Virus genome (UHGV): UHGV-1407733
Length of the DNA stretch: 26,153 nucleotides
Source of the DNA: a virus
Direction: 5' to 3' (one strand)
The translations under genes were made by a program, and so were the position numbers. This document shows, one piece after another, positions 10,622 to 26,153 of the stretch (position 1 is its first letter; every line of letters starts with the position of its first letter). The notes beneath the pieces were generated by a model. It worked only from the letters and a program-made list of their open reading frames with translations. It did not search any database and was not told where the DNA came from.

Positions 10622-11063
10622 ATGGCGCGCCCAACAAAGTATCAAGAGGCGTATGCCGAACAGGCACGCAAACTGTGCTTGCTGGGCTACACCGATGCAG
10701 AGCTTGCTGATTTCTTCGAAGTCAGTGAGTCAACTATTAACAAGTGGAAGCTTGATTATCCTGAGTTTTCGGAGTCCATAAAAAAAGGGTAAGGCCGTCG
10801 CTGATGCAGAAGTTAGTGACCGTCTTTATCAACGCGCTATGGGCTTCGTGGCTCCAGACATCGATATTCGTGTTATTGAAAACAGAATTGTCGAAACTCC
10901 GCTTGAGAAGTATTACCCGCCTGATACAACTGCCGCCATCTTCTGGCTTAAGAACCGACAGAAGGATAAATGGCGCGACAAGGTTGATCACGAGCTAACA
11001 GGCAAAGACGGCGGCGCAATTCAGATTGAAACATCACCGATGAGCACTCTGTTCGGAAAATGA
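10622..11063 (+). CDS. Terminase small subunit; frame interrupted in an A7 run
   Basis: N-terminal HTH-like region (MARPTKYQEAYAEQARKLCLLGYTDAELADFF...) runs to a stop just after the A7 run 10780-10786. The continuation KAVADAEVSDRLYQRAMG... is in the next frame (ORF 10839..11063); one A fewer restores a single ORF. Stop overlaps the TerL ATG. Confidence 0.65.
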
Positions 11064-12473
11064 CCTCGATTAATCCTATCTTTGAACCGTTCATTGAGGC
11101 GCATCGCTACAAAGTCGCCAAAGGCGGTCGAGGTAGCGGTAAATCATGGGCAATTGCGAGGCTGCTTGTTGAAGCGGCGCGTCGTCAGCCAGTGCGTATT
11201 CTTTGCGCTCGTGAACTGCAAAACAGTATCAGCGATTCGGTAATCCGGCTGCTTGAAGACACCATCGAGCGTGAAGGATATTCGGCTGAGTTTGAAATTC
11301 AGCGTTCAATGATTCGTCATCTCGGAACGAATGCTGAATTCATGTTCTACGGCATCAAAAACAACCCGACGAAGATTAAATCGCTCGAAGGTATTGATAT
11401 CTGCTGGGTGGAAGAAGCGGAAGCGGTAACGAAGGAATCATGGGATATCCTGATACCAACCATCCGTAAGCCGTTCTCTGAAATATGGGTGAGCTTTAAC
11501 CCGAAGAACATACTCGACGATACCTATCAGCGATTCGTCGTAAATCCTCCTGATGATATTTGCCTGTTGACGGTGAACTACACCGACAACCCGCACTTTC
11601 CTGAAGTTCTCCGTCTGGAGATGGAAGAGTGTAAACGCAGAAATCCGACACTGTATCGTCACATCTGGCTTGGTGAGCCAGTGAGCGCAAGTGATATGGC
11701 AATTATCAAACGTGAATGGCTTGAAGCCGCAACCGATGCGCACAAGAAACTCGGATGGAAAGCGAAAGGCGCTGTTGTCTCTGCGCATGACCCATCAGAT
11801 ACAGGGCCAGATGCTAAAGGTTATGCATCGCGTCACGGTTCGGTAGTTAAGCGCATTGCCGAAGGTCTGCTGATGGACATCAACGAGGGTGCTGACTGGG
11901 CTACTTCGCTGGCGATTGAAGACGGCGCTGACCATTACCTGTGGGATGGTGATGGTGTTGGTGCCGGGCTACGCAGACAGACAACGGAAGCGTTTTCCGG
12001 CAAGAAAATCACCGCCACGATGTTCAAGGCAGCGAATCGCCATTCGATGAAGATGCACCGTATCAACCGGAGCATGGGCTGATGAAGTCGTACAGGGTGA
12101 CAACGTTCGTACTATTGGCGATGTATTCCGCAATAAGCGAGCGCAATTCTATTACGCACTGGCTGACAGGCTGTATCTGACATATCGGGCGGTTGTCCAC
12201 GGTGAGTATGCAGACCCCGACGACATGCTGAGCTTCGACAAAGAAGCGATAGGCGAGAAGATGCTGGAGAAGCTGTTTGCAGAATTGACGCAGATTCAGC
12301 GCAAATTCAATAACAACGGGAAGCTGGAGCTAATGACTAAGGTCGAAATGAAGCAGAAGCTCGGTATTCCATCTCCTAACCTGGCTGATGCGCTGATGAT
12401 GTGTATGCATTGCCCGGAGTCGGCTGCGCAACCCGACTATTCCAGTTACTCAATTCCTTGTGGTGTAGGTTGA
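11060..12473 (+). CDS. Terminase large subunit; frame interrupted near the C-terminus
   Basis: Walker A KGGRGSGKS near the N-terminus and a nuclease-domain-sized C-terminal part. Main ORF ends at 12082 and the conserved C-terminus (ADEVVQGDNVRTIGDVF...SIPCGVG) is in another frame to 12473, with a shift in about 12030-12085. Confidence 0.85.
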
Positions 12474-12474
12474 T

Positions 12475-14671
12475 ATGGCAGAAAAAAAGATGACTGACTG
12501 GCATCGCAAGGTGCTGTGCAACTTTGATAATGCCTGGTCAGCAACGCAGGATATGCGTGAGCAGATTATTGAGGCTCAGCGTTTCGTCCGGGTGTCCGGC
12601 GCACAGTGGGAAGGCAGCACAAACGCTGGTTACTCATTTGATGAAGGCAGGTTTGAGCATTATCCGCGTTTTGAACTGAATAAGATTTCCCGTGAATGTG
12701 ATCGCATCATTGGCGAGTATCGACAGAATCGCATCAGCGTTAAATTCAGGCCGAAGGATGACAAGGCATCGGAAGCTTTAGCCGAAAAAATGAACGGCAA
12801 ATTCCGCGCTGACTATCAGGAAACATCCGGTGGCGAAGCGTGTGATAACGCATTTGATGATGCCGTAACGGGTGGATTCGGTTGTTTCCGCATGTGTGCC
12901 GATTACGAAGATGAAATGGATCCGAGTAACGAGCAGCGCCGCATCAGCCTTCTTCCTGTTTACGACCCAGCGACATGCGTCTTCTTTGATCAGGACAGCA
13001 AGCAATATGACCGCTCTGATGCTATGTGGGCTATGGAAATGTTCTCCATGACGCCTAAAGCGTTCGAGGCTGAATACCCTGATTCCATCGCGGCAAGCCT
13101 TTCTCGTGATGACACTGGCACTCAATATGACTGGTCAACGCCAGATGCCATCTATGTTGGACGTTACTACGAAGTCCGCATAGAGAAGGTGAAGCTCACG
13201 GCGTGGCGCAACCCTGTTAGCGGAGAAACGGCAATCTATGATGAAGATCAATCAAAGATATTGTCGACGAGCTAACCGATGGCGCATTCGAACTGATTGG
13301 TGAGCGAACGGTGAAGAAACGCCGCGTTTATTGCGGCCTTCTGTCTGGCGCTGAATGGCTGGAAGAACCGAAGCGTATTCCGGGCGAACATATTCCACTC
13401 ATCCCGGTATATGGGCGTCGCTCATTTGTTGATAATCAGGAGCGAATCGAAGGCCACGCAGCAAAAGCGATGGATGCACAGCGTCTTGAGAACCTGATGG
13501 TTCCATGATTGCAGATAACGCCACTCAGGCTGGCGGTGATGGCATTCCTATCGTGGATGTTGATTTCATTCCCGGCCCATTAATGAATCACTGGGCAGAG
13601 AGGAATAAGAAAAGACCTGCAGTTCTTCCTATGACCAGCAAGAAGGACAAAAACGGAACAGTCATTTCAGAAGCTCAGGTTGCTGGCTGGACACCTCCGA
13701 CACAAATGCCGCCAGCTCTTGCCGGGCTATTGCAGTACACCGGAACGGCTATTCAGCAAATTACAGGTGCGTCGCAGCTTGAGAACATGCCGAGCAACGT
13801 CGCTACCGATACCGTTGATAGCATCTTTAACCGGATGGACACGCAGTCCTATATCTACATGGACAACATGGCTAAATCCATGCGCCGTGCTGGCGTCGTG
13901 TGGCTTTCTATGGCTCGTGAAGTCTATGGCAGCGATACGCCAATGCGCATCGTTAATGAGGATGGCAGCGATGACGTGGCGCTGATGACTGGTGAAGTGG
14001 TTGACCGTCAGACAGGGCAGGTTATCGCGCTTAACGACCTTTCGCAGGGTAACTATGAAGTGACTGTCGATGTCGGTCAGTCGTTCGCTACTCGCCGTGA
14101 CGCAACGGTTAAGTCGTTACTTTCCATGCTGGCACTTATCCCGCCCGGAACGCCGAAACACGACCTTGTATCGTCGATGATCCTCGACAATATGGACGGC
14201 GAAGGGATGGACGACCTTAAAGAATACAACCGCAATCAGTTGCTTCTGTCTGGAGTTATCAAGCCGAGAACGCCAGAAGAACAGCAGATGGTTGAGCAGG
14301 CGAAACAACAACAGGCCAGTCAGCCAGATCCGGCTATGGTTGCTGCGCAAGGTCAGCTTCTTGCTGGTCAGGCTGAATTGCAGAAAGCGCAGAACGAGCA
14401 GGCAGCCATTCAGGTTAAAGCATTCCAGGCACAGACTGATGCTCAGGTTGCAGCGGCAAATGTTGTGAAAATCCTCGCATCTGCCGATAGCCAGCAGAAA
14501 TCTGATATCCGCGAGGCTCTGAAACTGCTCGGACAGTTCCAGCAACAGCAAGGAGACAATGCCCGTGCTGATGCAGAGCTTGTCCTGAAAAGTCAGGCAC
14601 AGGGCCATGCGCAGCGCATGGACATCAGCAGCATCCTGCAAAAATCAACTCAGCAACAACCACAGCAGTAA
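12475..14671 (+). CDS. Portal protein (P22 gp1 type); frame interrupted twice
   Basis: Three consecutive ORFs (12475..13275, 13311..13508, 13505..14671) together resemble P22 portal, including the C-terminal Gln-rich coiled-coil barrel. Shifts near 13250 and 13500. Confidence 0.9.
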
Positions 14672-14760
14672 TTAACCCATAACGTGCAATGGCTGTCTTT
14701 ATGAGGCCTGGCACCCTATTGCCTTCCGATGGCTGAACATCGAGTAAACAGGGGTAACAA

Positions 14761-15657
14761 ATGGACCAGATGGCAGAAAACACACCAGAAGTTGAAATCG
14801 AAACCGACGCGTCAGAGCAGATTCCTGATGATGTCGAACTGGCTGAAAAAGTCGAAACAGAAGATGGCAGTGAGTCCTCAGGCAATGATGCAGAGGAGGC
14901 TACTGAAACTGATGACGACGAATCAGAACAGGAATTCTACTTTGGTGACGAAAAGCTGGATTCGCCAACCAGCGAAGATGGCGCTGAGCATGGACTGGTA
15001 AAACACCTGCGCAAGACGATTAAAGAGAAAGACCGCGAGCTGAAAGAGCCTGATGCGTCAGTCTCAGAAACCCGTCGAGCAGCAGCCGGTAATCACTCAA
15101 CCACCGCGAATGCCAAAACTGGATGATGAGGACATCGGTTTCGATGAAGAAATCTACCAGCAACGCATGGCTAAGTGGGCAGAGGATAATGGCAAATACC
15201 AGGAGCAAGTACGAGAGCGGAAACGAGAGGAAGAGGCGCGTACCGCAACGCTTCAGCAGAAAGCAGCCAATTACATGCATAGAGTAAAAGCACTGAAAGT
15301 GGCTGGTTACCAGGATGCAGAGCAGGCTGTACGCGAAGATGTTCCTGTTCACATTCAGGACATGATCCTTCTTGAGTCAGAGAAGCCGGAAATCGTTGTT
15401 CTGGCACTCGGTCGCAACGCTGAACTGCGCAAGCAACTGGCAGAAGCTACCAACCCGTAGCAATTGGTCGTCTGCTGGAACGTATCGAATCGAAGGCCAG
15501 AATCATGCCAAAAGCAAAAACCACGGCAGCCACAACCCCGACAGTTAAGGGGAGCAACGGCGCAGTAATCAATAACCTCGACAAACTTCTCGAAAAAGCG
15601 CGCGACACCGGTGATTACACCGAATACCGGGCGGCGAAGAACAAAGCTAAAAAATAA
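14761..15657 (+). CDS. Scaffolding protein; frame interrupted twice
   Basis: Acidic N-terminus, central charged coiled coil and a basic helix-turn-helix C-terminus (GDYTEYRAAKNKAKK) typical of P22-type scaffolds. Pieces in frames 1, 2, 1 with shifts near 15060 and 15455. Confidence 0.7.
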
Positions 15658-15677
15658 TCCATCGGAGCTAAATACCT

Positions 15678-16933
15678 ATGTCTAACCAGTTAACAAAAGA
15701 CCTCGAAATCCTCTTTGAGAGCGTCATTGATAGTTTTGAGGCGTCCAATGTCGTTTCCCGCGAGTGCAGCAAGTTCCGACCGGGCGACATTGAAATGCAG
15801 CGCGCTGGCGACGTTGTTTATCGCCCTCAGGGCTACCACCTGAAAACCGTGAGCGGACTTGATCTGACTTCGGCCACTGCAAACTCACTCGTTCAGCGTC
15901 AGGTGCCTGCTCGCTTCCGCGAGCCAGAGAACGTCATCTACGAACTGGACGCAAAAGAAATGCGCGATCCGTGGCACAAAGAGCAGGCTGGCAAGGCGGC
16001 GGTCGCCAGTTGGCGGCGTGTTGATAACATGATCGTCGATGAGGTGGTCGCTCGCTCCACCAACGTGGTCACCATTAAATCGGCGTCCACCGGTAGCACT
16101 CTCGGCGAAGAACTCTGGAACGCATCGGCTGACGTTGATGCAATGATGCTGTCCATTGGTGTGCCTCAGGGTGGTCAGCGCAAGGCGTTCTACAACCCGT
16201 TCAACTACAAAGACCTGGCTAAGGAGCTTGGCTCTCGCGCATATGCGGTCGGTGCAACTCTGACAGCCTATGAGAAAGCTCAGATTCCACCTGTGGCATC
16301 CTTCGACAGTTTCCGCGTTGATTATGCTGGCGCAATGAAGGCTGGTTCAGCTACCGCTGTAACTCTCGGCGGCGCAGTAAAACACAAAGTTACCGCGATG
16401 GATTCCAACGGCGCGCCTACCGATAACCGCCAGGGTGACATCACCGTATCCACTGCTGGCGTACTGGCTGTCGGCGATGCATTCACTATCGCAGGCGTTA
16501 ACAGTGTCCACATGATCAAGAAGGTGGATACAGGTAAGCCGCAGGTATTCCGCGTCCTGGCAGTAAATGGCACTACCGTTACCATCAGCCCGAAAATTCT
16601 GCCACCAGACAACGCGGATAAGGCGTCTATTCCTTACCAGAACGTTACCGCCAATCCGGTGGCAAACGCGGCGATCACCATCTCAACAAGAAGGCTGCGG
16701 CTTCCAACATCTTCTTCGCTGAGGGTTCTGTTGAGCTGATGTATGGCAAGTTGGCATTCCCTACCGGCCAGGGTCCGCAGGTTATGACCGCAACGACCGA
16801 GCAGGGTGCGACCATCATCATGGCTTACCAATTCGACGCTAAATCTGGCAAAACGTGGACTCGCTTCACCACGCTGGCTGGCGCAAGCGTACTGGTCCCG
16901 GAATTCACCGGCCTGGTATTGGCTAACCAGTAA
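15678..16933 (+). CDS. Major capsid (coat) protein, P22-like; frame interrupted once
   Basis: About 418 codons after scaffold, followed by a strong terminator. The last 65 codons (ORF 16739..16933) are in another frame, with a shift near 16685. Confidence 0.8.
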
Positions 16934-20886: not shown

Positions 20887-22228
20887 ATGGCTACGTGGCA
20901 ACAGGGTATTAATTCTGGTGGTTTTCTGGCTGGCATCGGTACGCAAAATGAGAATGCGCCAAAGGCAAGCGACATTAACGCAACGCTTGGTCTGATCCGC
21001 GAAAACAATGAACTGGCTCGCTCAGGTGCAAATAACGTTGGTCTGACCGCGTTACGTGGTCTGGCTGGAGTTGCTGATATTTATAAGCAGCAGCAACAGC
21101 AGGAACGTAAAGCGGCATTCCAGAAAGGTTATGCGGATGCTTATGCGTCCGGCGACAGGGAGCAGATGCGTAATCTTATTACAGCATTCCCCGAAGAGTT
21201 TGAGGAAGTCCGTAAAGGCATGGGGTATGTCGATGACGCCCAGCGGGATGATTTTGGCAATCTGGCGCTTAAGGCTCAGGTCGCTTCGTCGCTTGGTCCG
21301 GGTGCATTTGGCAGGTTCATGATGGATAACGAAAAGGAGATGCGTCGTTTAGGTATCCCTCCAGAAACTATTGCGGAAAATGCAGGTTAACGACCCGCAG
21401 CTTCCAGCACTTCACAGGTAATCTGGCACTATTTTCTCTCGGTCATGAGAAGTATTTCGATATCAAAGATCGAATGGAGGGGCGTCGACTTGAGCAAGGG
21501 CGATTGGATGAAAGCATCCGTCAGGCTGACATGGAGAATGCGAGAGGATGGGCAAATATCCAAAACGCTCAACTAGACAGGCTCAGCGGGCACAAATGCA
21601 CTCAGATGAGATGGGATTGAAGCTAATGGAGCTGGGGCAAAAAGGTAAGCCGTCAGCAGACTTAATTAAGGGATTAAATTCTGATATTACCAATTTTGGC
21701 AAAAATTATAACTCTGTCAGAGCGGCGGCAAACTCTCTGCAAGCCCTTAGCAAGGTAAATACTGGCGCTGCCCAACTTGGGATTATCTTTAATTACATGA
21801 AGTCTCTCGACCCTCAGTCAGTTGTTCGCGAAGGTGAACAGGTTCAGGTCATGCGCTCTGATGGCATATGGGGGCAGATAAAAGGATATGTAGACCAGCT
21901 TAATGCAGGGAATGGCTTGTCACAGGAAGCGAGGGATAACATTGTTAACGCAGCCAAAATTAACGCCAACGCTATGGGGCAGCAGTTTAACCAGCAGGTA
22001 GACGAATATCTGGATACGTATGGAGATACTATTCCTCAAGGGCTGAAAAAAAGCTTAGGGAGAAGGAAGGCCAAGCTATTTGACGATGTCCCAGCGCAGC
22101 CTACACCACAAGGTGGTAATGGGCAGACAAAAGCTGCGCCAAGTGGGATATCAGAAGGCGCGACGGCAACGAACCCTAAAACTGGTCAGAAACTCATTTA
22201 TAGGAACGGACAATGGCAACCGATGTAG
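20887..22228 (+). CDS. Ejection protein, P22 gp20-like; frame interrupted twice
   Basis: ORF 20887..21390, a middle segment in another frame, and ORF 21548..22228 form one protein of about 447 codons. Shifts near 21385 and 21590. Confidence 0.65.
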
Positions 22229-24333
22229 GTTTACCCGAAGGATTTGTTCTCGATAATCAGCCTGATAACTCACAGCTTCCTGATGGTTTTGTGCTTGATT
22301 CCCAACCAGAGCAGCAGCAATCACCTTTGGTTTCACCAGAGGAAAACTCCAGACAGGAAAATGTTGTTAATAATGCTAACGGCTTCGACCGTTTTATGTA
22401 TGGCGTTCTCAGTGGATTGATGGATGTTGGTAAAGGTGTTGGTCTATTTCAGGATATGACACCAGAAGAGCAAGCCGCAATTCAGTCTCTACAGCAGAAG
22501 TTAGCGGCAAAACCATCAACCGCACAAGATGTTGGTGAGTTCGTTGGACAAGCAGCACCATTTGTTAGTGGTGGTGGGATTATTTCTCAGGTTCCGAAAG
22601 GGGCGGCAAGGCTGGCTGCCGCCGCAGGGCTTGGTGCTGGAGAAGGGGCTATTGTAGCCAATGGAACAAATAGCGATGTTGCTTCTGGAGCTGCTATTGG
22701 CGCTGTGGCTGGCCCTGTAGCAGAGATTGTTGGTCCAGCGCTTGGGAAGATTGCAGGAAAAATTAAAAATAGTGCCGGAGATATTTATCGCTCATCCGTA
22801 GGGATGGGTAGTAAATCATCTAAAGCAACGTTAAAGAAAGCTGCTGGCGCAATGGACAATAAATTTATCGGCGGGCAACGAGCTATTCAAGATTTCGCCG
22901 ATGAAGTTAATCCTGATTTTAACGCGATAAATGCTATTCGTGAGCTAGAACTGGAAAATTATGCCACTCCAGGCATGATCTCTAATAATCCTGCTGTCAG
23001 GGCTCTTGATAATGCAGTGGCAAGTCTCCCTGGCACAGAGATTAGTGAGGCGCATAAGCGTTTTATTACTGAATTAGGAAGAAAAGCTGATGAAATGATA
23101 ACTTCATTTGGGGGAAGCCTTGATAAGCAACTGGTTTCTGACAGGCTTGCAGATAATTTTGATAAAACCATTTCATCATTACAAAATCAGTCAGATAACA
23201 TCTACAACAAAATTGCCGAAAAGGTTCCTGTAAGAGACCGGATTGAGCAACTAATACATTGAATTTTTTAGAGGATTTTGCTGATGATATAGGTGGAATT
23301 GATGAATTATCTCCAATAATGAAGCGGACATTGAACCGACTTGATCCAAACACCTTGCCAACGTATGGGCGTTTAGATCTCGCTAGAAAGCAGGTTGGAC
23401 AAGCTATTGGCAAAGGCTCTGGTCCATTCAAGGATGAAGAAACAGGTGTTCTTAAAAAGTTATATGCAGCCATAACAGATGACCAACAGGCTGTCGCAGA
23501 AAAATATGGCGCAGGGGAATTATGGACGCTTGGTAAGGAGTTGGTAAAAAAACGAAAATCCATTGAAGATGATGCCGTAACCGTTTTGGGTAGAAAACTT
23601 CAGCAATCAGCAATTCCAAAAGTTGAAAGTGCCGTTGTTAATATGGCAAAAGGAAACGGTGGTGACTTTAGGCAATTAATGAAGTCAATTCCAAAGGATA
23701 TGCGGCAGGAAGTTGCGCTCACCTCAATGAATAAAGCATTTACCAGCTATGCTAAATCACCAGGTCAGCAATTAGGGTTGATGGATTTGTAAAATGGTAT
23801 AACGGAATGTCACGCAATGGGGCCAATATGAAGGCTCTCCGTGATGCTATTGGCACAGATGCATCAAAGCGCCTTGATACGATTTATCAAGCAGCCAAGG
23901 CTATGAATAGACTCAATGCTGGTAAGCAGTATGCTAGCAGCCTTGTGGATCAGCAAGTTAATAACTTTCTGAAGGAAAAGGGTAGTCTAGCAAAAATTTA
24001 TGGAATAGCCTCAAAAGCTGCTGCGGCGGAAGGTGTTACAAGCTTATCTGGTCTTCCTGGTGTAGGTGCAACAGGGTGATAACGTCCGCATTGATGTCAG
24101 GGAAAACAAGCAGGATAAAGGCTGCCGATGCTCTACTGTCTTCTCCTGAGTTTAAATCAATGCTATTTCGCCTGCAAAACGCACCAGTAGACAGAGCAGA
24201 AGTGAGACGCGCAATAGAAAGGAAACTGATGCAATCTGGGGCATTTAAGAGATGGGAGAAAACCCTATCAACAGATGAAGCAAAAACCATTGCCCGCACG
24301 GGGATTATTACATGGCTCGCTAGTGACAGTTAG
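22213..24333 (+). CDS. Ejection protein, P22 gp16-like; frame interrupted about three times
   Basis: Four consecutive ORFs (22213..23262, 23259..23792, 23807..24079, 24076..24333) in rotating frames. N-terminus carries the tandem peptide repeat PEGFVLDNQPD / PDGFVLDSQPE. Last gene before the leftward accessory cassette, as gene 16 is in P22. Confidence 0.65.
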
Positions 24334-24556
24334 TCAACTTTGGTTATTTTGCCTTCTTTTTCTTGATGAACTTTGCATCCATCATCTTTTGATAGCCAAA
24401 CTAAAAACTTTAAAACCTTAAACACAAGTACGGATACTGTAATGAAAGCACCAATTGCAATTATTGCTATTGAAATTATTTGCATTGGTGCTTTTAATGC
24501 TGGGAAAACAGTGTAATGAGCGAAAAAACAGCAATTATGATGAGCCATTGCTTCAT
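24330..24556 (-). CDS. Small membrane protein; start and frame uncertain
   Basis: Track ORF 24330..24548 has one predicted TM helix (IISIAIIAIGAFITVSVLVF). A stronger start (ATG 24554-24556, RBS GGAGGA 4 nt upstream) opens a hydrophobic peptide MKQWLIIIAVFSLITL in another frame across an A6/T6 run (24523-24528). Confidence 0.4.
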
Positions 24557-24584
24557 GTTGTCCTCCCAGGTTTTATTGGTAAGA

Positions 24585-25145
24585 TCACTGCTTTATTTTG
24601 GTATCATGGGTTTCACTAGCGGCTTCCTTCGCAGTCGGCTCAGAAACCTTGAAGTAAGATTGAATCTGCGGAAGCGTTATGATTACCGCAAGCATAGCGA
24701 GAACCGCACCAACGAGCCATTGGGTCGCGGTCATGGATGTTTTAATGCCATCAATTTGGCCTTTGAGCCCTGCAACTTCGCCATTGCTAGCGAATATCTG
24801 TCCCTTAATTTCATTAAGCGACTGATTCATAGCTGTAAATTGCTTAGATTGGAATTCTCTGAAAGCTGAAATTTCAGCGCGCATGTTAGCAGATATTAAC
24901 TCAATTTCTGCTTTGTTTTGACCAAGCTTCGCGTCAATCTCTTCTCTTGATGGGCTGCCCATAGCATGCTCCTCAGTGTATTGTTTTCCAAGATAAGCGA
25001 TATTATTGTTTTTGGTTATATCATTCTTGGTAACTGGAGGCGAAGCATTGGACTTTTCTCCGAAGCCACCTGTCGACCCCATACGACCAAGTGTTCTCTT
25101 TTTCTCCGCTGCATGATCAGCATTTACGGCAGGAAAAGTAATCAT
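24585..25145 (-). CDS. Tail-anchored coiled-coil membrane protein (superinfection-exclusion candidate)
   Basis: Central coiled coil (AEIELISANMRAEISAFREFQSKQFTAMNQSLNEIKGQI) followed by a single C-terminal TM helix (WLVGAVLAMLAVIITL). An internal ATG near 24962 with RBS GAGGAG is an alternative start giving about 126 aa. Confidence 0.55.
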   Translation of the reverse strand: MITFPAVNADHAAEKKRTLGRMGSTGGFGEKSNASPPVTKNDITKNNNIAYLGKQYTEEHAMGSPSREEIDAKLGQNKAEIELISANMRAEISAFREFQSKQFTAMNQSLNEIKGQIFASNGEVAGLKGQIDGIKTSMTATQWLVGAVLAMLAVIITLPQIQSYFKVSEPTAKEAASETHDTKIKQ

Positions 25146-25152
25146 GGCTCTG

Positions 25153-25431
25153 TCAGCTTAATTTTTTTGATTCTTCGTGTTGAGAAACTATATACTTAGC
25201 CAGTTCAAGAAGTTGATTTTCACTCATGCGAATATTGGCAATTTGGTATCTAACTGGCTGAATCTCCTCATTATTAACCCAGTCTGAAACATGCTTAAAA
25301 AATGCTATTGAACCAAATCTTGCTCCGACATCCCCAAAAGACGAGTAAGCAAATCCATCAGCATACTCATTTACAGCATCACTTGAGTCCTTGAAGATGG
25401 TTTCTTTGAAGTTCACTTTGGTATCTGTCAT
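25153..25431 (-). CDS. Hypothetical protein (92 aa)
   Basis: ORF starting 3 nt after the mnt-like stop with AAGGA RBS (translationally coupled); no TM helix, no recognisable motif. Confidence 0.55.
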   Translation of the reverse strand: MTDTKVNFKETIFKDSSDAVNEYADGFAYSSFGDVGARFGSIAFFKHVSDWVNNEEIQPVRYQIANIRMSENQLLELAKYIVSQHEESKKLS

Positions 25432-25433
25432 AT

Positions 25434-25683
25434 TTATTTATCCTTACCATACATGGTCTTTAGCGTCTCAACATCGCGTTCAAGATCTATCAATCGTGAT
25501 GCTATAGTTGCAAGGTCTAGTGCTTGAATGTGTTTATTTTTTTCGGTCCACGCTTCAAGTGCCGGCGACCATCTCAGCATTTAATGAACGAGAATTAGCC
25601 TCAGCCAGTTCAATAAGACGTTCCTTTATCTCTACAGGAAGCCTCAGATTCACTTGAGGGTTTTTGTACTTACGATCAGACAT
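25434..25683 (-). CDS. mnt: Mnt-like ribbon-helix-helix repressor; frame interrupted once
   Basis: N-terminus NPQVNLRLPVEIKERLIELAEANSRSLNAEMV fits the Arc/Mnt RHH pattern. The C-terminal coiled-coil part (LEAWTEKNKHIQALD...TLKTMYGKDK) is in the adjacent frame, with a shift near 25560. Confidence 0.65.
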
Positions 25684-25788
25684 CGGCGCATCCTGAATAA
25701 TTTTTTACCACAGGATATGTAGGTATCTATTGACTATCAATGCGTACCTAAATACTATGTATGCGTACCACATACAACGGAGGATGCA
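25684..25788. promoter_or_regulatory. Divergent Pmnt / Pant promoter-operator region
   Basis: Rightward -35 TTGACT (25730-25735), 17-nt spacer, -10 TACTAT (25753-25758), then RBS GGAGGA before arc. Inverted repeat TAGGTA...TACCTA and direct repeat GCGTACC flank the promoter elements. Confidence 0.6.
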
Positions 25789-25929
25789 ATGAAGGTAAAA
25801 ACACTGCGTATGCCAGAGAAGCTAGAAAAAATTCTTGAAGAAAAAGCAAAGGAAGAGTGTCGCTCATTCAGCGCAGAAGTAATTAAACGGGTGCTGGACA
25901 GCCTGAGGAGAGAGGGGATAACGGTGTGA
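25789..25929 (+). CDS. arc: Arc-like ribbon-helix-helix repressor
   Basis: 46-aa ORF MKVKTLRMPEKLEKILEEKAKEECRSFSAEVIKRVLDSL matching the Arc/MetJ RHH pattern; below track cut-off. Confidence 0.7.
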   Translation: MKVKTLRMPEKLEKILEEKAKEECRSFSAEVIKRVLDSLRREGITV

Positions 25930-25944
25930 TTCGCTTGGATGCGG

Positions 25945-26027
25945 CAAAGAAATCAAAACAGTGAAGCCCCAACTGCGGGAACAGTCAGGGCTTCGGTATC
26001 GTAAAACCACGCATAGGAATTAACGAC
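25945..26027 (-). ncRNA. Sar-like antisense RNA region (arc-ant intercistronic)
   Basis: Reverse-strand hairpin GAAGCCC-N18-GGGCTTC followed by a U-rich tract (TGTTTTGATTTCTTT), antisense to the ant ribosome-binding region. In P22 the sar antisense RNA occupies this position. Confidence 0.35.
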
Positions 26028-26153
26028 ATGAAAAGTATAGCAACAGCAGTATCTACTATCAATGTACCATTCCACGGCGCAGAGCTTTATGTTGTCAATC
26101 ACAACGGCGAACCGTATACCCCAATGAAACCTATCGTTGAGGAATGGGGCTAG
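26028..26153 (+). CDS. ant: Antirepressor Ant, N-terminal fragment (runs off the window; frame interrupted near 26140)
   Basis: MKSIATAVSTINVPFHGAELYVVNHNGEPYTPMKPIVE resembles the Ant N-terminal domain. The in-frame TAG at 26151-26153 looks like a frame-change artefact, since the adjacent frame reads ...VEGMGL. Confidence 0.55.
   Translation: MKSIATAVSTINVPFHGAELYVVNHNGEPYTPMKPIVEEWG

Follow-up and report, generated by a model that had tools for sequence, protein, structure and literature searches.

Between the maintenance repressor gene mnt and the ejection-protein gene at the position of P22 gene 16, the virus genome UHGV-1407733 carries three small open reading frames (ORFs), and the locus raises the question of what these genes are, whether they belong together and what they might do for a prophage. 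The stretch analysed, hereafter the window, is 26,153 nucleotides (nt) long, and its ORFs were listed from 21 kb to the window end. In the initial annotation the three ORFs were described as a single cassette of membrane proteins at the place that sieA holds in P22, with an architecture that fitted no family that could be named. The three co-directional ORFs downstream of an Mnt-like gene are indeed present. All together, the comparisons reported below show that the locus is mosaic and combines two accessory elements ("morons") of independent distribution, the first being the pair ORF1+ORF2 and the second ORF3. The pair is, with high probability, a module of the type of gp49/gp48 in phage HK97 that is co-transcribed with the repressor in the lysogen. 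The features on which the argument depends are the following:

25434-25683, minus strand: mnt, an Arc/Mnt-family ribbon-helix-helix maintenance repressor gene (Pfam Arc), split by one extra base near 25564
25153-25431, minus strand: ORF1, a predicted soluble protein of 92 amino acids (aa), phrog_4231 (PHROG match, synteny)
24585-25145, minus strand: ORF2, a predicted 186-aa tail-anchored coiled-coil protein, phrog_5820 (PHROG match, gp48 homology, AlphaFold2 (AF2) model)
24657-24725, minus strand: predicted transmembrane (TM) segment of ORF2, about residues 141-163, followed by a 23-residue C-terminal tail (hydropathy, AF2)
24960-24974, minus strand: putative internal start of ORF2, with the Shine-Dalgarno sequence GAGGAG at 24969-24974, 6 nt of spacing and the ATG of codon 62 at 24960-24962
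24330-24556, minus strand: ORF3, a predicted 75-aa protein with two TM segments, phrog_7294, with its true start at ATG 24556 and a frameshift at 24514-24517
25712-25740, minus strand: Pmnt-like promoter, TTGATA-17-TATCCT (consensus scan only)
25730-25758, plus strand: Pant-like promoter, divergent from the Pmnt-like promoter and overlapping it (consensus scan only)

A gene pair probably shared with phage HK97

When phage genomes were searched by tblastn with ORF2, HK97 gp48 and its equivalents in HK542, HK244 and HK225 were retrieved at about 33-38% identity over the core, and BLASTP aligned ORF2 to HK97 gp48 with 38% identity over the core (E 3e-21). The gene order in HK97 is cI, gp49 (88 aa), gp48 (216 aa) and N, and the slot held there by gp49/gp48 is the one that rexA-rexB occupy downstream of cI in lambda. 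For ORF1, direct comparison with HK97 gp49 alone gave no signal. The alignment by hhalign of a broadened ORF1 profile (A5) with a gp49-like alignment (A3), to which HK97 gp49 itself belongs, reached a probability of 85% (E 6e-6) over 75 collinear columns. Specifically, this alignment spans the whole domain, with the motifs (Y/F)AD.F and I.F(F/C)(K/R)H in common, as well as a strand that leads into M(S/P) and the C-terminal helix. ORF1 and HK97 gp49 are probable remote homologues.

The pair occurs together with Mnt or CI in several types of phage, HK97 included, and we therefore regard the architecture that had seemed to match no family as that of a catalogued gene pair, phrog_4231/phrog_5820. 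Specifically, a second lineage of E. coli P22-like phages carries mnt followed by genes for 95, 192 and 75 aa, with amino-acid identities of 70%, 60% and 96%, respectively. The order is mnt, ORF1-like, ORF2-like and gp16 in the IMG/VR contigs L027 and L028, and in a Morganella P22-like prophage an unrelated 92-aa gene lies between mnt and the ORF1-like (93 aa) and ORF2-like (152 aa) genes. An Arsenophonus contig shows a helix-turn-helix (HTH) repressor gene followed by ORF1-like, ORF2-like and Bro/Ant genes, and the Arsenophonus locus was the only one returned when species-representative genomes were scanned with the ORF1 profile. Finally, a lambdoid prophage of Yersinia aleksiciae has cI(S24), an ORF1-like gene of 98 aa (hhalign probability of 99.1% to ORF1), an ORF2-like gene and N. 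Each of the 22 IMG/VR loci that contain an ORF2 homologue has a small gene that adjoins or overlaps the start of this homologue, and the small gene is preceded by a repressor gene (Mnt, CI-S24 or a short CI-type HTH) in all cases except L046 (21/22).

The small partners of the ORF2 homologues comprise the ORF1 family, gp49-like proteins of about 100 aa (A3), zinc-ribbon proteins of 118-127 aa and a protein of 147 aa, which suggests that the partners are interchangeable. Conversely, the partner of the ORF1 homologue in UPF_BP1 (149 aa) and that in Klebsiella (158 aa) have the same architecture as ORF2, and their profile similarity to the ORF2 family is weak (probability 67%, E 5e-5, and probability 12%, E 2.5e-3, respectively). 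As a separate observation, the zinc-ribbon-like partners in the lambdoid loci L038:3631-4014 and L048:3508-3864 contain two CxxC pairs and have no Pfam match.

Exact copies of the ORF1 and ORF2 proteins are common in E. coli and in several Salmonella serovars, Kentucky and Hadar for example, and were seen on hundreds of contigs. Among 5426 complete E. coli genomes, the pair of the window type is present in nine and the HK97-type pair in about 1%. ORF1 matches phrog_4231 with E 4e-47 and ORF2 matches phrog_5820 with E 8e-97, and the ORF2 family has 185 representatives at E <= 1e-3 among 1.84 billion clusters at 50% identity. Across diverged homologues, in which the synonymous sites are saturated (proportion of synonymous differences, pS, about 0.7-0.9), the ratio of non-synonymous to synonymous divergence (dN/dS) is about 0.1-0.2 for ORF1 and about 0.2-0.3 for ORF2. 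Since the non-synonymous divergence is far below the saturated synonymous divergence, we conclude that ORF1 and ORF2 are real genes under purifying selection.

As regards transcription, only 2 nt separate the mnt stop codon from the ORF1 ATG, 7 nt the ORF1 stop from the ORF2 ATG and 28 nt the ORF2 stop from the ORF3 ATG at 24556, and no terminator-like site was found on the minus strand from mnt through the end of ORF3. The arrangement of the Pmnt-like and Pant-like promoters agrees with that of the annotated Pmnt and Pant of P22. The N-terminal piece of mnt matches Pfam Arc (E 7e-10), and the intact Mnt can be aligned with P22 Mnt from end to end at 32% identity (E 8e-12). The close packing and the promoter arrangement are consistent with putative expression of ORF1-ORF3 from the mnt promoter in a lysogen. 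The ORF1-ORF3 block has a GC content of 0.39-0.43 and the head genes one of about 0.50-0.56; the low values continue into the 3' part of the gp16-position gene, exactly as had been noted.

The window pair and the HK97 pair are alike in lying directly downstream of a lysogeny repressor gene and in the same orientation. They differ in the repressor, which is CI in HK97 and Mnt, in the immI region of a P22-like podovirus, in the window, and gp48 differs from ORF2 in the N-terminal region and in the tail after the TM segment. The sequences of ORF1-ORF3 had already been catalogued. What is new here is the link between slots, by which one portable pair ties the immI/sieA slot of P22-like phages to the rex slot of lambdoid phages.

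ORF3 and the mosaic structure of the block

The initial annotation had ORF3 as a small TM peptide; its membrane type was confirmed, whereas the 72-aa model listed at 24330-24548 turned out to be a frameshift artefact. The closest complete genome, that of E. coli EC6 (NZ_CP182398, with its intact copy at 1453656-1455009), is 99.8% identical over 24200-25700 and is annotated with intact genes for 707 aa (at the gp16 position), 75 aa, 186 aa, 92 aa and an 82-aa Arc-family repressor. Compared with EC6 base by base, the window lacks one base at 24514-24517, inside ORF3, and inserting one base there gives exactly the 75-aa protein of EC6. The start at 24556 is preceded by the Shine-Dalgarno sequence GGGAGGA. 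The protein matches phrog_7294 (E 2e-41); its hydropathy profile shows two hydrophobic segments, and its C-terminal tail is charged. The stop codon overlaps by 4 nt that of the convergent neighbour:

22213-24333 (L001:2011-4134), plus strand: ejection-protein gene at the position of gp16 (synteny), broken into four pieces here and encoding 707 aa where it is intact

ORF3 is a probable gene. We consider it rather improbable that the AT-rich spacer next to the gp16-like gene is simply open here in one frame, without a functional gene. A dN/dS of about 0.3-1.3, obtained from only 3-16 substitutions and thus from too few to decide, would be compatible with a spacer, as would the narrowness of the family (at least 81% identity), the GTG start codon of some versions and the fact that homology to other phages ends exactly at the ORF3 start codon. 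Nevertheless, 14 of 21 clusters (90% identity) keep the 75-aa frame, the substitutions preserve hydrophobicity, and the protein has a PHROG family of its own. In addition, two unrelated upstream contexts each provide a strong and well-spaced Shine-Dalgarno sequence, GGGAGGA-N4-ATG in the window and AAGGAGG-N5-GTG in L003 and E212.

The independence of ORF3 from ORF1/ORF2 emerged when the region 24200-25700 was compared by megablast with the 5426 complete E. coli genomes. The region matched 202 of them, and the whole block was present in only nine; the others share only query bases 1-356, which contain the gp16 3' end and ORF3, and the same holds for phages E212 and EC.P3. Because ORF3 and the gp16 3' end occur without ORF1/ORF2, ORF3 is independent of the pair, and the idea of a single three-gene cassette gives way to that of two separately distributed elements. 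The 3' end of this gp16 allele and ORF3 are inherited together. Where ORF1/ORF2 are missing, unrelated genes fill the space between ORF3 and mnt.

Mosaicism extends into ORF2 itself. When the window was compared with L008, the 5' two-thirds of the gene were found to be saturated with synonymous changes (pS 0.8), as are mnt and ORF1, while the sequence from about codon 130 through ORF3 is nearly identical (pS 0.17). We therefore conclude that a recombination joint lies within the gene (24585-24760 of the window compared with L008:5390-5579). Both of these cassette lineages have the 707-aa gene at the gp16 position.

That this part of the genome is a variable cargo region had been anticipated, and the view is borne out by the literature, in which the variable region of P22-like phages is the "ant moron", with varied cargo of unknown function (PMC2629481), as well as by a sister phage, E212, in whose corresponding slot (L005, 1755-2632) we found a SocA/Panacea antitoxin-domain gene and a gene for a 140-aa partner. 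Elsewhere, a YafO-toxin gene lies beside the ORF1-like pair in a Klebsiella prophage (L012 3481-4505), and a lipoprotein gene directly follows the ORF2 homologue in the lambdoid contig L039 (4462-4818). The sieA gene of P22, situated between gene 16 and mnt, specifies a block to DNA entry that acts at the inner membrane (PMC10883804). The equivalence to this position first proposed for the whole block holds for ORF3, which adjoins gene 16 convergently in sieA's own slot, but not strictly for the block, although all of it lies in the same variable region between genes 16 and 9.

The gp16-position gene is assigned by synteny, since it follows the genes for gp7 and gp20 (Inj_translocase). The 707-aa protein resembles P22 gp16 only faintly (E 0.029), matches nothing in Pfam or NCBIfam, and is labelled "transglycosylase" in one phage record. 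The gp16-like gene reported next to the block is an intact gene in relatives, while in the window it is broken into four pieces.

Predicted products of the pair and candidate functions

The description of ORF1 as a soluble 92-aa protein was upheld by hydropathy analysis, which detected no hydrophobic segment. Its AF2 model (predicted local distance difference test score, pLDDT, 74.8) consists of three long beta strands followed by a C-terminal helix.

ORF2 had been described as a coiled-coil protein with a single C-terminal TM anchor, and the predictions agree with this. Hydropathy gives one TM segment and, in the AF2 model, residues 1-61 are mostly disordered, a single helix of about 90 residues (67-157) runs into the sole TM segment and the 23-residue tail after it is again disordered. 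Because no N-terminal signal or TM segment is present, most of the protein is expected to be cytoplasmic and anchored by its C-tail; from general insertion rules, we predict an N-in topology with a cytoplasmic stalk at the inner membrane. The core of the ORF2 family opens with a nearly invariant [MI][ST]REE[LI]DAKL motif and closes with G.IDG(L/I)KTS..T.QW, the TM segment and often P(Q)IQ.Y. The first 40-90 residues form a hypervariable region, and the tails after the TM segment are either short or rich in proline and glutamine (Pro/Gln-rich), with a recurrent PI(I/V)IQVP-like motif that may mediate periplasmic interactions. This motif (PI(I/V)IQVP or PTVIYVQQP-like) was seen in P0046-P0088 and in HK97 gp48 (L002:2276-2926) and is absent from the ORF2 of the window.

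The Pfam model CCDC90-like (PF07798, formerly DUF1640) matches ORF2 of the window with 21.5 bits (E 2.4e-4), below the gathering score of 33.5, and matches 31 of 82 members of the ORF2 family at E <= 0.01, with a best value of 2e-8. Some ORF2 copies carry the NCBI name "CCDC90 family protein". ORF2 thus appears to be a fringe relative of this family of tail-anchored coiled-coil proteins. The characterised eukaryotic members, MCUR1 and CCDC90B, are membrane scaffolds, and we know of no role of the family in phage biology. With MCUR1, CCDC90B and their prokaryotic homologues ORF2 has in common the long coiled-coil stalk and the C-terminal TM segment, and it differs from them in that its N-terminus is disordered in the AF2 model, with no folded head domain. 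The [MI][ST]REE[LI]D sequence at the start of the ORF2-family stalk is similar, though not identical, to the beta-layer motif [aliphatic]-A-T-K-[polar]-[DE]; by resemblance only, [ST]REE[LI]D looks like a beta-layer-like cap. According to the literature, DUF1640 proteins reside in membranes and carry a beta-layer motif where the C-terminal stalk begins (PMC4786415).

ORF2 is probably oligomeric through its CCDC90/DUF1640-like stalk, and it may have a second product. An in-frame start at codon 62 would yield a short form of 125 aa. A methionine lies 1-4 residues ahead of the [ST]REEL motif in most members of the family and in the consensus of the 82-member alignment, and it is nearly invariant among the ten closest homologues. 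Database entries starting at this residue exist (P0006, P0009 and 125-aa annotations on hundreds of contigs). In addition, a Shine-Dalgarno core of at least 4 nt lies at -15 to -4 of the internal start-like codon in 11 of 16 diverged homologues, against a background of 7% for all codons of the same genes, and the combination of Shine-Dalgarno sequence and start was seen at L002, L008, L015, L019, L027, L035, L039-L041 and L045-L048. The long frame is also conserved, adjoining the stop codon of the partner gene in every locus, and in the N-terminal part of ORF2 non-synonymous differences (pN 0.49) are fewer than synonymous ones (pS 0.80) between the window and L008. Since both the long frame and the internal start are conserved, it is plausible that ORF2 is made as a long and a short product through use of the predicted internal start.

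No named function could be attached to the three proteins, as had been stated at the outset: PHROG families 4231, 5820 and 7294 are all listed as "unknown function", NCBIfam gave sub-threshold coiled-coil noise only, and sequence searches against solved structures returned spurious matches only. Homology to P22 SieA, the check that the initial annotation had singled out as decisive against a new module, was absent throughout. Specifically, tblastn of ORF1, ORF2 and ORF3 against phage genomes gave no match to P22 sieA, BLASTP produced no alignment between ORF2 and SieA, and a regular-expression search for FxRYPxEAxxFNK, a motif that is reported for SieA types A-C alike (PMC10883804) and that the search did find in P22 SieA, was negative for ORF1, ORF2 and ORF3. 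Hydropathy assigns one and two TM segments to ORF2 and ORF3, respectively, compared with about three or four hydrophobic segments for P22 SieA by the same method. Two other P22 proteins were likewise rejected, orf59a for ORF1 (BLASTP without alignment) and SieB for ORF2 (hhalign probability 0.1%).

Which function might such a pair serve? Several classic exclusion systems, namely rexAB, nun, sieA and sieB, were found among prophage genes co-transcribed with a repressor, and the slots in question hold exclusion or abortive-infection genes such as lambda rexAB, HK022 nun and P22 sieA. Because the characterised occupants include genes of this kind, we tentatively propose an anti-phage role for ORF1/ORF2, a possibility argued from genomic position only and to which we give a little less than even weight. 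The pair would be a two-component module comparable to lambda RexAB or P22 SieB/Esc, with the inner membrane as its site of action. It would ride on the transcript of the repressor, Mnt or CI, and would therefore be made continuously in lysogens. ORF1 would act as a small cytoplasmic sensor or regulator with a beta-sheet-plus-helix fold, and ORF2 as a C-tail-anchored inner-membrane effector with a cytoplasmic coiled-coil stalk, one TM segment and a short periplasmic tail. An ORF2 oligomer would disturb membrane function or the entry of a superinfecting phage, the short isoform from the internal start would modulate the long form, and both the oligomerisation and a direct interaction between ORF1 and ORF2 are putative. 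ORF3 would be a separate 75-aa inner-membrane protein with two TM segments in the true sieA slot, and may be a small exclusion or injection-related factor.

As to mechanism, an abortive one like that of Rex or SieB is doubtful for ORF1/ORF2. The likeness to lambda RexAB lies in a two-gene unit that, for ORF1/ORF2 by prediction, is co-transcribed with the maintenance repressor and has one cytoplasmic and one inner-membrane product, and in the rexAB position occupied by the lambdoid versions of the module. RexA, however, has about 279 aa compared with the 92 aa of ORF1, RexB has four TM segments whereas ORF2 has one and a coiled coil, and no match to Rex was found in PADLOC, Pfam or NCBIfam (the presence of Rex models in PADLOC 2.0 was not verified). 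P22 SieB/Esc is, according to the P22 annotation, a lysogen-expressed membrane-protein gene with an in-frame internal start and a shorter product, as ORF2 is predicted to be, and differs in being a single gene with its own promoter.

Several observations weigh against the anti-phage module as proposed. The pair stands without an adjacent repressor gene at L012 and L046; in the former, a Klebsiella siphovirus prophage, the ORF1 homologue and its partner of the same architecture lie among tail genes. The partner of an ORF2 homologue is sometimes unrelated to ORF1 (the zinc-ribbon and 147-aa proteins), and no ORF1-ORF2 fusion exists among the 249 proteins collected. PADLOC gave no hit for ORF1-ORF3, the match of ORF3 to a 2TM effector being non-significant (E 0.63), and in the literature searched we found no paper on HK97 gp48 or gp49, hence no assigned function, so that the comparison with this uncharacterised pair supplies none; nor did the literature on DUF1640 in phages and on hot spots downstream of a repressor offer anything on function. 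The Pfam match of ORF2 lies below the gathering score and rests largely on coiled-coil and TM features, and a single TM helix on a coiled coil is atypical for a channel. Finally, the binomial P of about 6e-10 for the internal Shine-Dalgarno sequences is optimistic, as the sequences are related, and the Shine-Dalgarno-like strings ahead of the internal methionine could partly reflect glutamate codons.

The main rival is superinfection exclusion at DNA entry, of the type of SieA, T4 Imm or HK97 gp15, exerted without cell death by ORF2, ORF3 or both, which would prevent the conduit that delivers the DNA of the incoming phage from being assembled or from working. We regard it as unlikely overall, and as more likely for ORF3 than for ORF1/ORF2. 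ORF3 sits exactly at the place of P22 sieA, convergent with gene 16 and adjoining it, and is co-inherited with the gp16 C-terminal region, to which SieA-escape mutations map (PMC10883804), but this linkage may reflect adjacency alone. P22 SieA is a prophage-expressed inner-membrane protein, as ORF2 and ORF3 are predicted to be, and the Pro/Gln-rich PI(I/V)IQVP-like tails of many ORF2 homologues could contact periplasmic partners; yet all of ORF1 and most of ORF2 are predicted to be cytoplasmic, and neither similarity to SieA nor its motif was detected. In addition, the injection machineries of the phages that carry the pair are unrelated, some of these phages being P22-like podoviruses and others HK97-like or different siphoviruses. 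This would not be expected of an entry blocker directed against relatives of the resident phage, and the presence of the pair in prophages of both groups argues against a target tied to one injection machine.

An equally low probability is assigned to a role in lysogenic conversion or host physiology, in which the pair would be an envelope or stress modulator, a scaffold of host membrane complexes, comparable to the mitochondrial MCUR1/CCDC90 proteins, or a fitness or virulence factor. The affinity of ORF2 to the CCDC90/DUF1640 family, with its eukaryotic scaffolds, points in this direction, as do the benefits that repressor-operon morons can bring to host fitness and the frequency of the exact proteins in E. 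coli and in Salmonella (Kentucky, Hadar), on hundreds of contigs. Nevertheless, the module was in a prophage or viral context only, at every locus examined, and the intragenic mosaicism, the hypervariable N-terminus and the swapping of partners resemble arms-race evolution to a greater degree than a role of the housekeeping type.

Least probable, indeed very unlikely, is an addiction (toxin-antitoxin-like) or lysis/induction-timing module with a membrane-toxic, holin-like ORF2 that would be restrained by ORF1 or by the short isoform and would help to keep the prophage stable or to adjust lysis, since the likeness of the ORF2 dual start to those of holin/antiholin and SieB/Esc, the combination of a small partner with a membrane protein, and the SocA/Panacea toxin-antitoxin-type gene in the same slot of E212 and the YafO toxin gene by the Klebsiella pair are set against the location of the module in a lysogenic transcription unit antisense to late transcription, the absence of similarity to any known holin or toxin-antitoxin family, and the normally separate, late-operon lysis cassette of P22-like phages, for which short ORFs at about 8.1-9.3 kb are plausibly placed, without identification.

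Returning to the proposal of an anti-phage module, the classic model phage HK97 carries a pair of the ORF1/ORF2 type that, to all appearances, has never been the subject of a study, and both HK97 lysogens and P22-like prophages lend themselves to genetic work. Should the pair prove defensive, ORF2 would add an effector architecture of a new kind, in which a tail-anchored coiled coil is combined with a dual start, and would provide the first prokaryotic function for the CCDC90/DUF1640 family. The wider extension, according to which ORF1/ORF2 and HK97 gp49/gp48 would belong to an undescribed and widespread family of two-component prophage defences, with a CCDC90/MCUR1-like, tail-anchored and oligomeric effector at the inner membrane, an interchangeable small sensor in the cytoplasm, a short isoform and portability into any repressor operon, is somewhat doubtful, though less so than an abortive mechanism.

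State of the window and the neighbouring immI region

In addition to the base missing from ORF3, the comparison with EC6 showed that the gp16-position gene of the window lacks single bases at three places (23246, 23774 and 24073) and that there is one base too many near 25564, inside mnt. The latter gene is consequently present in the window as two pieces (25555-25683 and 25434-25580), compared with the intact 82-aa gene of EC6. The gp20-position gene and several larger ORFs of the virion region also appear split, around 11060-16739 and 20887-22228. Other close relatives show 5-9 gaps each when aligned to the window, which is consistent with indels peculiar to the window. Because many ORFs are broken by 1-nt indels, the window either stems from an error-prone assembly or represents a prophage in decay. 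Both ORF1 and ORF2 happen to have remained intact.

Upstream of mnt and its promoter, the region contains the following features:

25789-25929, plus strand: arc-like gene of immI
25960-26026, minus strand: sar antisense RNA, between arc and ant (Rfam RF00262, 76.6 bits, full length)
26028 onward, to the window end at 26153, plus strand: start of ant, immI

Compared with the P22 annotation, immI appears to be a complete region of the P22 type, and the circuit looks complete except for the frameshift in mnt.

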